Of a stretch of DNA of 64,000 nt, positions 31,299 to 35,857 are shown one piece after another. Below the pieces are notes generated by a model, which saw only the letters and a list, made by a program, of their open reading frames with translations, was not told the origin of the DNA and searched no databases. The stretch's first letter is position 1; each line of letters opens with the position of its first letter. Location: NCBI RefSeq assembly GCF_006345805.1, contig NC_043010.1:6572001-6636000 (forward strand), written 5' to 3'. A program made the position numbers and the translations under genes. Source of the DNA: Octopus sinensis (lineage: Eukaryota).

Positions 31299-31338
<40 letters not shown>

Positions 31339-31387
31339 TGTGTACAGTGCTCAGGTGCACTACAACTCATCTAAAGTGTATATATAA

Positions 31388-34152
31388 TCAGGTGAAGTTT
31401 CGGCGGATTTCGGAAAGCATGAGGGCCTTAAAAGATGCAGTGTCATGGCAGTCAACAACTGACGCAGGCAGTTTATTCCATGCTTCAGCAACTCTGAGCG
31501 TGAAAAAATGTTTCCGAAAGTCATGGGAGCTGTATTGTTTTCTGACTTTGTAGGCATGTCCACGTGTGTTAGACACATGGAGATCAAAAAGGTGTTCAGT
31601 GTTGTTGTTGGTGAGGTGGTGATAACTTTGTGGGTGTTTACCAAGTCCGTCGCCAAACGCCGGAGCTTCAGTGAATCCATGCCCAGGGAAACAAGGCGCT
31701 CAGAATATGGTAGGTGTCTGATGGAGGGTATGCGTTTGGTTGCACGTCTCTGGACAGATTCCAGGAGGTCAATGTTCTGTGCAAGATAGGGGTTCCAAAC
31801 TGATGATGCGAATTCCAAGTGTGGTCGTACCATAGCTGTATACAGTTTTAAATAGATGGCTGGAGAGCGGCTAACAAAAGACCTGCTGAGTGATGCCAAG
31901 ACACCCTCGGCCTTCCTGACAATCTTAGAGATATGCTTTGACCAACGCAGATCATTGCTGACAGTGATGCCTAGGTCACGCTCGCAAGAGGATTTCTTGA
32001 TATCAGTGTTGTGGAGGGAGTATGTGAACGCAGGGTTTTTTCTCCCAAAATGCATGGTGGTACACTTGTCCACAGCCAGTTTCAGTTGCCAGTCTGTGAT
32101 CCATTGCTGCATTGTGTCTAGGTCTGATTGCAGGAAAGAGTTGTAGACATCAGGATCTGTCCTCTTGATTTCAAGGTACAGCTTGATGTCGTCTGCATAT
32201 TTCAATACTGTGGCATTCTTTAAATTGGCATCTATGTCGTTAATGTATGCCACAAACAAGAGGGGGCCAAGGACAGATCCCTGTGGTACACCCGATGACA
32301 TCTCATATGGTGTAGAGTGCTGTCCTAGAACTGTGACTACCTCCTTTCGGCTGAGGATGAAGGATTTCAACCAGTTAAAAAGGTCATCCCCCACACCCAT
32401 TGCAGAGAGTTTCACCATAAGCCTTTTGTGTGGCACAGAGTTGAAAGCCTTAGCAAAGTCAAGGTAGACAACATCCACCCATGAGCCACTGTCAGTAATC
32501 TGAGTAATGTCCTCAAGGAACTCGACAAGCTGGTCACTGCAGCTGGAGTTAGGGACAAATCCATATTGTGAGGGTCGGATGAGACTGTGAGAGCTCCAGA
32601 AGTTCCAGAGTGTTTCTCTGACACACGATTCCATCAGTTTTGCAATACAGCTAGTGAGACTGACTGGGCGATAGTTGACAGGTGATGTGCGGTCGCCCTT
32701 TTTGAACAGAGGAATGACACTGACAGTTTTCCACTGCTCCGGAGTAGCACCATTGTTGAGACAGTACTGGAAGAAAATAGAAAGCTGGTGTAAAAGGAAG
32801 TGCCTGCCACGTTTGAGAAGCAGGTATGTAACTCCATCGAGACCAGGGGAGGCATAGTTGCGCTTATTTTGAAGGTGACGTCGCAGCATTGCAGGTGTAA
32901 ATTCCATAGTTGTTATGGAGTTTGCTGTTAGTGATGGTGAAGATGGTACATTTTGACTTTCAACAGTGAATATGTTTGCATAGCACTCGGCAATGAGTTC
33001 TGCGCATTCCTTGGGGTCGTCAGTGATCTGGTTTGTGTGAGGGTTGCGAAGAGGGCCCACTGGAGAGTGAGGTCTCTGCTTTGAGTGCACATATTTCCAG
33101 AAAACCTTGCTGTCAGGATTGGCTGCTATGCACTGTTCAAATTCAAGCACTGCTTTTTTTGTCACTTGCTTGAGATGGTTGGAGGATTTATTCCGCTTCT
33201 TCCTGTTGGTGTCTGATTTATGCAACCTGTATTCCCGTTCAGCAGTCCGACATTCCCTCCTGGCAAGTCGGACCGCTGAAGTTTCCCAAATTGCCCTTTT
33301 GGGGCGGTTCTTCTTTTTTTGTTTACGTGGCACTGATGCTGCACATGCTGCCCATATTGAGTCCAGGATACTCTGGAGTATAGTATTCACATCTCCAGAG
33401 TTGTAGAATTCACGCCAGTTTGGGTGCTGTAGTTCAGTGTGGTACAGGTTCCAATCTGCTCTCTTCCAATCGAAGGAAGCAGATTGGAGATGGTTCAGGT
33501 TTTTGTTGCCCGCAAGAGCCAGATTGGCGATGATCATAGCATGATCAGAGTCACCTAGAGGTTCCTCCGTAGTGCAATTGATAACCGCTTCAGGAGTTGT
33601 GGTGAAGAGCAGGTCCAAGGTGTTGTCGCCTCTTGTTGGAGAGGTGACTACTTGTGACCAGTTTGAGTCCAGCACAAGCTCAACAAAATCGTTTGCACTC
33701 TGTGGCCAATGGAAGGTCTCCCAATCGATCTCAGGATGATTGAAATCGCCTGCAATAAACACATAAGTGGCTGTTTTCCTGGCAGCAGCTTGGAGGACAT
33801 TGCAAAGCTGTGTGTCCCGATGGTAACTTGGGGGACGATAAACAACGCCAAGCAGGAGTGTTGACATGGTCATACGCACGTCACAGAAAAAAACTTCTTC
33901 TTGTGATTCGTTCAAATCGGCACAAGGAATTACCAAAAAATTTGAATGAACGTAGACCATCACACCACCACCACGGCGGTTAGTGCGGTCCTTACGGAAG
34001 AGGTTGTACCCCGTAATGTTGAAAACCCCATCACAGAGTAAGGAATGCGCCCATGTTTCCGTGACAGTGATGAAGTCAGGGTCAACACTTCTGACGTAGG
34101 CGTTGAACAAATGTATTTTGTTGCATAAACTGCGAGCATTTAAGGACAACAA
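31388..34152 (-). pseudogene. LINE ORF2: APE endonuclease + reverse transcriptase, with a 1-bp frameshift near 31620
   Basis: SLNARS, VTETW, AGDFN, LDLLF, SDH (APE); GVPQGSVLGPLLF and KYADD (RT); the conserved C-terminus lies in the shifted frame (track ORF 31388..31576). Confidence 0.93.
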
Positions 34153-34208
34153 TTTGTACCCTGCTCGCAGTTTATGATGGTGTGTAGAGGATGGCAGGTT
34201 GTTCTGGC

Positions 34209-35005
34209 TTAGTTTCCCTGAGTTGCTGTAGTCTTTTTAGTTATTGTGGGTAGAGAGCACTCAGACCAGCTGGTATCTCTCTTCCACGTTTCAGCAGTCT
34301 TGACAAATCTCCAGATTTGTCCATCTTCCCGAAGACTGAAGCTTTCCTGTAGAGCTGAGTTCCTATTCAGGGAAGCCACTACACGTAGCTTCGGACATAC
34401 ATTGGACGGTAAGCCTGGGCGTGTTCGGAAGGTGGTCCGATTTTCCCGCCCAGCTTTAACTGAGGCCAGATGGTAAGAGGTTGCCTCAGTGGGGTCCGTA
34501 AAAGACAACTTGATGAGCCTAGGTTTTGGGCCAGGTCGTCCAAGGCGGATAGCACCCGTTGGGGGAACGCAGCCTAGGTCTTTGGCTGAGTTGGCAGCAA
34601 AAGCCTGAGTTGGCAGCAAAAGCCTGAGTTGGCAGCAAAAGATCAGCCATGTCTTCTGGCACCCCAATGGCAATGACTTCATGGGTGGCAGAATCCGCGG
34701 TCTTAAATGCGACAAGAGGTACAGGTACAGGGAGGTTCTTTAGCAGAGCATTCCGTTAAGACCCCTCATTGTGGAGTCCAACCTGAATGGTTGCTTTTAT
34801 TCCTGCTACTTCCCCTTTTAAAGCACAGATCGATTGTTGCAGTTCTGCAAGAACCGCACTGGTCAATTGGTGTTGTTGTTGTTGCTGCTGTTGCTCTGGT
34901 TGTGGTTGATTTTGTTGTTGCTGTTGTTGTTGTTGATGTTGTTGTTGCTGCTGCTCTGGTTGTGGTTGATTTTGTTGTGCTGCTGCTCTGGTTGTGGTTG
35001 ATTTG

Positions 35006-35039
<34 letters not shown>

Positions 35040-35433
35040 CTGGTTGTGGTTGATTTTGTTGTTGCTGCTGTTGCTGTTCCGCCTCCTCCACGGGAGTGGC
35101 AGGGGGAGACACAATCGTCGGTTGTGGAGGCACGCAGGCCTGACACTGAAAAGTCCAAGATTTAAGCTGAACCATCTTCCAGAGTCTATCCATCATAGCA
35201 TTATGATGGCTCTTTTTTTGGCCTGGGATCTTCTGAAAGTCCGTGGCACATTGGAGGCAGACAGAGATGAGACATGTCCCACATTCGACCCAGCGATTAC
35301 GGAACGTATTTTCGGGTTCCGTACAGATGTGGCAGGTGTGATTTTCTGGGCAGTGTTCTATTTTAGAGCAGCGACCAGTCTTATCGCACGCCGCTATGGA
35401 TTTCACCATGGCGATTCTGTTGGTTCTGGTCAT
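34209..35433 (-). pseudogene. LINE ORF1: PHD-like zinc finger, polyQ linker, coiled coil, RRM-like region; in-frame stop at 34756-34758 and 19-bp duplication frameshift
   Basis: CHIC...WVECGTCLISVCLQC...WTFQCQAC; reading through the TAA gives EVIAIGVPED; removing one ctgagttggcagcaaaagc unit (three copies at 34586-34641) rejoins AIRLGRPGPKPRLIKLSF...TQGN*. Confidence 0.82.
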
Positions 35434-35857
35434 CCGTAGAGACAGAAAATGTAAACAACAATACGATAAAAGTAAAATATAAAATATTTGTTTTTGATTC
35501 GTTCTTTTTTGTGTTATTTCTTTAACTCTCTTACTGTATTCATCTTCAAGTAGTTGCTTTCATCCTAACAATTTTAAAAGTAACCATACAATTTAATCTT
35601 ATTTTAAATGAGTGAGTTTATAAAGCAACTGGTTTTAACACATACTGTTGAATACACTTTTGTTTATCATAAAGTCTCTCTCCCCCTCTCTCTCTCTCTG
35701 TCTATCTCTCTCTACACATGTTTTCAGATGTCAACAGTCATACCAAAATCAGATGATTTTTTTCTGCTATTTGATCCATGACTGAAACCCTTGACAGGTA
35801 CAAATGTATGTATACACATATATGACTGAATGAACAAATAGAAGAAAAAAGGTTATA

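Follow-up and report, generated by a model that had tools for sequence, protein, structure and literature searches.

This report concerns the junction between the two open reading frames (ORFs) of a long interspersed nuclear element (LINE), apparently of the CR1 type, in the genome of Octopus sinensis. The element lies on the minus strand of a stretch of 64,000 nucleotides (positions 6,572,001 to 6,636,000 of contig NC_043010.1), which we call the window and whose numbering we use throughout. At the junction, ORF1 ends in a slippery heptamer that is a candidate site of programmed -1 ribosomal frameshifting into ORF2. The features that bear on this question are the following:

31300..35514, minus strand: LINE copy of family A, probably CR1-type; both ORFs are defective, the 5' end is slightly truncated and the 3' end is an (ATT)n tail
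34209..35433, minus strand: ORF1; 379 amino acids in copy L007, broken in the window copy
34237..34239, minus strand: stop codon closing the -1 frame upstream
34212..34218, minus strand: slippery heptamer G_GGA_AAC, the predicted -1 shift site
34209..34211, minus strand: UAA stop of ORF1, immediately following the heptamer
34141..34211, minus strand: linker in the -1 frame, from the shift site to the N motif of the endonuclease; open in both families (A and B)
31388..34218, minus strand: ORF2, measured from the heptamer to the stop codon usual in the family; the frame is left near 31620 in the window copy
33541..34146, minus strand: APE endonuclease domain of ORF2 (PF03372, PF14529)
33958..33960, minus strand: first AUG in the ORF2 frame, located past the N and E motifs of the endonuclease
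32020..32697, minus strand: reverse transcriptase domain of ORF2 (PF00078)

The likely assignment to the CR1 type is based on the domain set and the tandem-repeat 3' end. The only Pfam matches of ORF2 are PF03372, PF14529 and PF00078, i.e., an endonuclease and a reverse transcriptase without RNase H. Named protein matches to ORF2 are predicted bird proteins (29-34% identity), which, from their motifs, we presume to be CR1-derived.

Signals for -1 frameshifting contain a heptamer of the form X_XXY_YYZ, in which GGA is tolerated as XXX, with a usual spacer of 5-9 nt, according to one survey (PMC3542737). In the window, GGGAAAC lies in the ORF1 frame as X_XXY_YYZ, and the downstream ORF is open in the -1 frame across it and lacks a start codon of its own. 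This frame reads GKLSQNN...YKLLSLNARSLCNK into the endonuclease, whose N motif is at 34140. Because the -1 frame is closed by the stop codon at 34239-34237, any shift would be confined to the last 8 codons of ORF1. The AUG at 33960 is codon 93 counted from the opening of the -1 frame and codon 65 counted from the UUG at 34152. In these respects (the heptamer, both stop codons, the AUG-less start of ORF2 and a first AUG that follows the N and E motifs) the window sequence bears out the original prediction, a model's annotation of this DNA that had proposed programmed frameshifting.

It might be suspected that one copy of an element with a single ORF or an AUG-started ORF2 has decayed, and that this layout is the resulting artefact. 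The window copy is indeed dead, given a late frameshift in ORF2 near 31620 and two lesions in ORF1:

34756..34758, minus strand: premature UAA in ORF1
34608..34638, minus strand: 31-nt duplication that shifts the ORF1 frame; private to the window copy and skipped by three sequencing runs

We compared copies of the element, in searches of the organism's own genome that covered 2.72 billion bases. Our sample of family A comprises the best 30 of 384 candidates (40 scored), picked by likeness to a query spanning the junction. The heptamer and stop are intact, as GGGAAACTAA, in 27 of the 30; the others have lost one base, carry GGTAAAC or carry G_GAA_AAC. The -1 frame opens just 7 codons ahead of the Lys codon in 29 of 30 copies. 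ORF1 is open from Met to Gly-Asn-stop in 10 copies, 6 of which also have an ORF2 that is open to the end of the locus. Across the genome, the pattern GGGAAACTRA ahead of codons for NARSL has 250 matches, against 1 for the reversed control, and all of the 100 matches listed resemble family A or B. In a set of 98 locus entries that have the heptamer and an in-frame N codon (some places are counted twice), an ATG is present in the scanned span in 10; it lies upstream of the N motif in 4, three times in foreign flank and once as a private point change. In 3 of 4 sequencing runs, assembled contigs span the junction and show no difference there; since it is a guess that these runs are RNA, we make no claim about expression. 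Thus, there is neither a family-wide upstream AUG nor a single continuous ORF, and the junction layout is a property of the family and not an indel of one copy. The suspicion of an artefact is already refuted by the identical junctions in 27 of 30 copies, the confined opening of the -1 frame and the sister family described next; contigs of three runs have the same junction.

A protein search of the genome revealed a sister family, B. Its ORF2 is 79% identical to that of family A (61% at four-fold sites), and the C-terminal half of its ORF1 is 58% identical (48% at four-fold sites). The 10 bases of heptamer and stop are identical between the families, including all three synonymous positions of the heptamer region, and the residue is kept in just 1 of the 9 codons that precede them. 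Among the 15 family-B loci read first, G_GGA_AAC_UAA stands in the ORF1 frame in 7, another 7 carry an extra G, and the remaining one is mutated. The stop is followed in both families by sequence that gives UAAGC, UAAAC or UAACC, and never an overlapping UAAUG. Among the places examined in this genome, including 14 extra places, only families A and B were found.

The extra-G copies (14 loci at 11 places) put the ORF1 tail and ORF2 in one frame, and so might be cited in favor of a single-ORF ancestor, or else be taken for a natural lineage of ORF1-ORF2 fusions. We rejected the latter idea. All of these copies, which lack most of ORF1, start at one point in the reverse transcriptase region of an element of RTE type and are accompanied by a short target duplication. 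Because they share one insertion point, they reflect one passive event and are not evidence of an active fusion.

Two observations on family-B copies can be added. The composite at loci L065-L070, L072, L102, L153, L162 and L173 (G000, 11 places) consists of a 5'-truncated B copy, with the extra G at its slippery site, inside an RTE-type element, and at least 2 kb of upstream sequence is common to the 7 places compared. Also, the 3' flanks of copies L064 and L074 adjoin C2H2 zinc-finger-like coding repeats, which were apparently duplicated together with the flank.

More distant evidence comes from the C-terminal tails of ORF1 proteins. The protein P0121, found with the C-terminal half of ORF1 (58% identity), ends in SVGN where family A has TQGN and family B has ILGN. 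A full HMMER search returned 63 ORF1 relatives, from which we dropped 7 that lack the last C-terminal Trp motif; the remaining 56 have a median pairwise identity of 33% and come from lineages with shared ancestry. Among ten clusters of ORF1 relatives that were looked up, one includes a sequence from a transcriptome that bears the label Ancora sagittata. The dipeptide GN occurs in 41 of the 56 tails (mean 6.4 and maximum 16 in within-tail shuffles; 1.5 in body segments). It is located 3-36 residues past the Trp motif and 0-19 residues ahead of the stop, in a tail that is otherwise unalignable. Of the 15 tails without GN, 13 contain KN or EN instead (against a mean of 4.5 in shuffles, p ~2e-4; two control dipeptides occur in 3/15 and 1/15), which are found in just 2 of the 41 tails that have GN.

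GN, KN and EN are the zero-frame readings of G_GGA_AAC, A_AAA_AAC and G_GAA_AAC, respectively. The residue preceding GN is one whose codon can end in G in all 41 cases (0/41 are N, D, H, Y, F, C or I; P ~1e-4). The other two frames of GGGAAAC are nearly absent, with GK[LPHQR] in 0/56 tails and [GRW]ET in 1/56, which is not what a motif acting as RNA regardless of frame predicts. As read from these proteins, then, the trace is locked in the frame that tandem slippage needs. While KN follows from the heptamer consensus, EN was chosen after the tails were seen. The EN reading is backed by the tolerance of GGA as XXX (PMC3542737) and by the DNA of L088, a distant CR1 locus in which KEN-stop is encoded by G_GAA_AAC_UAA. 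Taken together, the heptamer seems to be kept beyond coding need, as DNA in two families and, in 54 of 56 tails, as a trace at the level of the dipeptide.

A different explanation of the same tails is that Gly-Asn is a motif of the ORF1 protein (ORF1p) itself, and that ORF2 is expressed by another route, such as internal entry or a shorter transcript. Ser-Gly-Asn and Gln-Gly-Asn account for 32 of the 41 cases (21 and 11, respectively), which may reflect ancestry or a peptide preference. Moreover, the 56 relatives are known as proteins only; their codons, a -1 ORF2 and their identity as CR1 ORF1 are presumed, and searches of genome contigs and viral contigs for the DNA behind them gave nothing useful. 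However, Gly, Lys and Glu are chemically unlike and yet interchange only before Asn, as GGA, AAA and GAA would. A protein motif also does not account for the three synonymous positions kept between families A and B, and the ORF1 tail is of low confidence and unstructured in a structure model. We consider this explanation very improbable.

The linker also contains a hairpin, which the original prediction had listed as part of the candidate frameshift signal, with the caveat that it lies further from the heptamer than usual:

34162..34176, minus strand: 5' arm of the 15-bp hairpin, in family A only
34124..34138, minus strand: 3' arm of the hairpin, with another 5' arm as its partner in family B

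The arms are exact reverse complements, as had been noted, with a loop of 23 nt and a spacer of 35 nt from the heptamer. This is the sole perfect stem of at least 12 bp with a loop of up to ~40 nt in the 4.2-kb element, and its folding is far from that of shuffled sequences (z -7.61, 0/200 shuffles; z -4.05 against synonymous-codon shuffles). Among 80 family-A entries, 63 have a perfect hairpin and 11 have one A-C mismatch, which is typical of older copies, and a two-sided compensatory change was found in 0 of the 80. In family B, the positions of A's arms are unpaired; instead, the same 3' arm and a different 5' arm form a 10-bp stem in 20 of 21 entries. That stem has two G-U pairs and lies ~50 nt from the heptamer, in a region that folds no better than shuffles (z -0.5). 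Given its distance of 35 nt, the lack of compensatory changes and the weaker stem that takes its place in family B, we conclude that the hairpin is real but probably not a canonical stimulator, and the proposal of such a role is not upheld. Nevertheless, a stem that covers the beginning of the endonuclease may matter in some way.

A further observation is that the 3' arm has one and the same nonamer as its partner in family A (34124-34176) and in family B (L073), but at different codons, namely His-Lys-Leu in A and Tyr-Lys-Leu in B. This could stem from a short duplication of ancient date, or selection for a stem at the start of the endonuclease could have been convergent. We also considered a pseudoknot in which the hairpin loop pairs with bases +7 to +14, and rejected it, as its 7/8 pairs are at the level of chance.

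Stems in this position are relevant to a further alternative, in which termination at the UAA is followed by reinitiation in the linker, at a near-cognate codon (CUG or UUG) and aided by the hairpin, as in SART1 or L1. SART1 reinitiation needs downstream structure, as described in two papers (PMC10275272, PMC3894237). In both octopus families, CUG or UUG codons are indeed present just before the N motif, at His-x-Leu and Tyr-Lys-Leu, and both have a stem over this region. In addition, family B has UGGGA, the core of motif 1 of the termination upstream ribosome-binding site (TURBS), beside the stop. However, a TURBS should sit 40-90 nt upstream of the stop (PMC3542737), whereas here the motif abuts the stop, the trace is frame-locked, and family A has CAGGGA and not UGGGA. 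There is no stop-start overlap in either family. Near-cognate initiation, which the original prediction had offered as its second option, also leaves the conserved in-frame heptamer unexplained, as it does the frame lock (41 versus 0 and 1 of 56), the exchange of Gly, Lys and Glu before Asn, and a trace that floats 0-19 codons from the stop. We regard reinitiation as unlikely.

Our preferred explanation is that programmed -1 frameshifting at G_GGA_AAC yields an ORF1-ORF2 fusion, to which we assign a probability of roughly 77%. This part of the original prediction gains from the conservation of the heptamer, the sister family, the 54 of 56 tails and the absence of an upstream AUG; the part that concerned the hairpin is not supported. 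According to this hypothesis, the tRNAs for Gly and Asn would slip in tandem by -1 on the heptamer. Most ribosomes would halt at the UAA and release ORF1p, and a minority would shift and produce a fusion of ORF1p with the ORF2 protein (ORF2p), with the predicted junction TQGN/LSQNN. The rarity of the shift would set a high ratio of ORF1p to ORF2p, much as for Gag and Gag-Pol. Through the flexible tail and a linker of 24 residues, the endonuclease would stay tethered to the domains of ORF1p. As for stimulation, we can only speculate that it might come from slow termination at the adjacent UAA (unavailable where GN is far from the stop), from ribosomes queuing behind one that has stalled at the stem, or from a protein bound to the C-rich linker.

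Several observations weigh against this hypothesis. The support for frameshifting comes from sequence comparison, and the endonuclease would have to work while attached to ORF1p. No stimulatory stem-loop or pseudoknot lies 5-9 nt downstream of the heptamer; the best pairing there, 7/8, is equalled by 30/400 shuffles (116/400 with G-U pairs). A metagenome scan found only partial relatives of 26-62% identity, from other CR1 groups, with the junction reached in 11 of 21 loci. In these 11 distant CR1 loci (26-37%), a -1 overlap is present in 9, but a heptamer is within 10 nt of the stop in only 3; an upstream AUG is present in 6, and the ORF1 tails look different, so that the picture is mixed. Among 37 N-terminal extensions of ORF2, GK[LRPQH] is found in only 4 (p 0.018; mean of 1.0 in shuffles), and P0001 (60%), the nearest of the ORF2 relatives that have a long extension, has no trace of GK in its 59 residues. 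Finally, a weak search for natural long ORF1-ORF2 fusion proteins found none among 7989 candidates.

Other observations on distant relatives are as follows. One bird protein of ten examined (P0024) reads FKLD upstream of the endonuclease, as a U_UUA_AAC site would in the -1 frame. At loci L082, L083, L084 and L086, the ORFs have long -1 overlaps (139-187 nt), and an in-frame A_AAA_AAC occurs early in each, 133-163 nt upstream of the ORF1 stop. Two CR1-like proteins with endonuclease and reverse transcriptase, P0070 and P0123, are labelled as from a metagenome-assembled genome of Gammaproteobacteria, which is likely eukaryotic contamination. A broader idea is that -1 frameshifting is a general route to reverse transcriptase in the CR1 clade, either retained or evolved anew among ORF1 types that are unrelated, with heptamers that can replace one another (G_GGA_AAC, A_AAA_AAC, G_GAA_AAC and U_UUA_AAC), without a canonical nearby stimulator, and giving a Gag-Pol-like fusion within an ORF1p trimer. 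We consider this idea tentative, at slightly less than even odds.

The remaining features of the element concern ORF1 and the 3' end:

35134..35334, minus strand: Cys-rich PHD-like zinc finger of ORF1, seen as a pattern
31300..31339, minus strand: (ATT)n 3' tail

ORF1 encodes, in order, the Cys-rich PHD-like finger, a poly-Gln linker, a coiled coil, an RNA recognition motif (RRM), a C-terminal domain (CTD) and the flexible tail, which ends in Gln-Gly-Asn-stop. The Cys pattern is shared with P0121 and has no significant match to the Pfam PHD families. With the structure model (mean confidence, pLDDT, 86.8), the nine top Foldseek matches are L1 ORF1p structures (E 1.7e-5 to 8.6e-4, TM 0.31-0.36), the best being human 2yko/2ykp; a PDB sequence search with the ORF1 profile returned coiled-coil noise only. 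The model thus suggests that ORF1p resembles that of L1 in its coiled coil, RRM and CTD, behind a PHD-like finger, i.e., a probable type IIC layout. CR1/L2 elements with such an ORF1 (PHD and coiled coil-RRM-CTD) are described in PMC4120745; the likeness is one of architecture, shared along with an ORF2 of endonuclease and reverse transcriptase. That paper does not contain the word frameshift. The poly-Gln linker (34862-35079) is built of NQPQPEQQQ units whose number varies among copies, and the linker of family B is rich in Pro, Ser and Gln. In the 3' untranslated region, a hairpin-like stretch at 31342-31363, just ahead of the (ATT)n tail, is nearly identical in family B despite the differing length of that region, and is a candidate recognition element for the reverse transcriptase.

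The proposed arrangement can be compared with known systems. As in retroviruses and RNA viruses (PMC3542737), an in-frame heptamer ends the structural ORF, the polymerase is in the -1 frame, and a low-ratio fusion is predicted. Unlike in those systems, the host is an element without long terminal repeats (non-LTR), no stimulator lies at 5-9 nt, the stop follows the heptamer directly, and there is no protease domain. Among non-LTR elements with an APE-type endonuclease, a review states that ORF2 of Dictyostelium TRE5-A and TRE3-A needs a -1 frameshift (PMC5911963). These elements belong to a different clade and host, and our comparison draws on the review's statement. SART1 and L1 share with family A a bicistronic LINE RNA and structure past the ORF1 stop (PMC3894237, PMC10275272, PMC5009743), but family A differs in having no UAAUG, no AUG before the endonuclease, a -1 ORF overlap and a conserved in-frame heptamer. 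Reinitiation in L1 is described as AUG-independent (PMC5009743). The non-LTR cases in the same paper are HeT-A, TART and initiation in mammalian LINEs, and a +1 frameshift or reinitiation has been described in Paramecium (PMC5405496). One review treats ORF2 translation in LINEs as an open question and lists reinitiation, internal entry and 2A peptides, with the word frameshift absent from the text examined (PMC3894237).

Our literature search, which did not extend to older subscription papers on CR1, found no published proposal of frameshifting for CR1. Some of those older papers reportedly describe overlapping ORFs and may have raised frameshifting. We therefore present a known mechanism, -1 frameshifting, that would be new here in a CR1-type LINE, as a conserved candidate site.

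The conserved heptamer makes the route of ORF2 translation directly testable, with a reporter or a single peptide. The ORF1-tail dipeptide test is a cheap screen that can be applied to other LINE clades, and a slippery site that is kept without a close stimulator is of interest to the recoding field. If frameshifting does occur, the expression design of reconstructed CR1 elements would change. Moreover, the fusion would alter what ORF2p is, and would offer a simple basis for the ratio of ORF1p to ORF2p and for cis preference.
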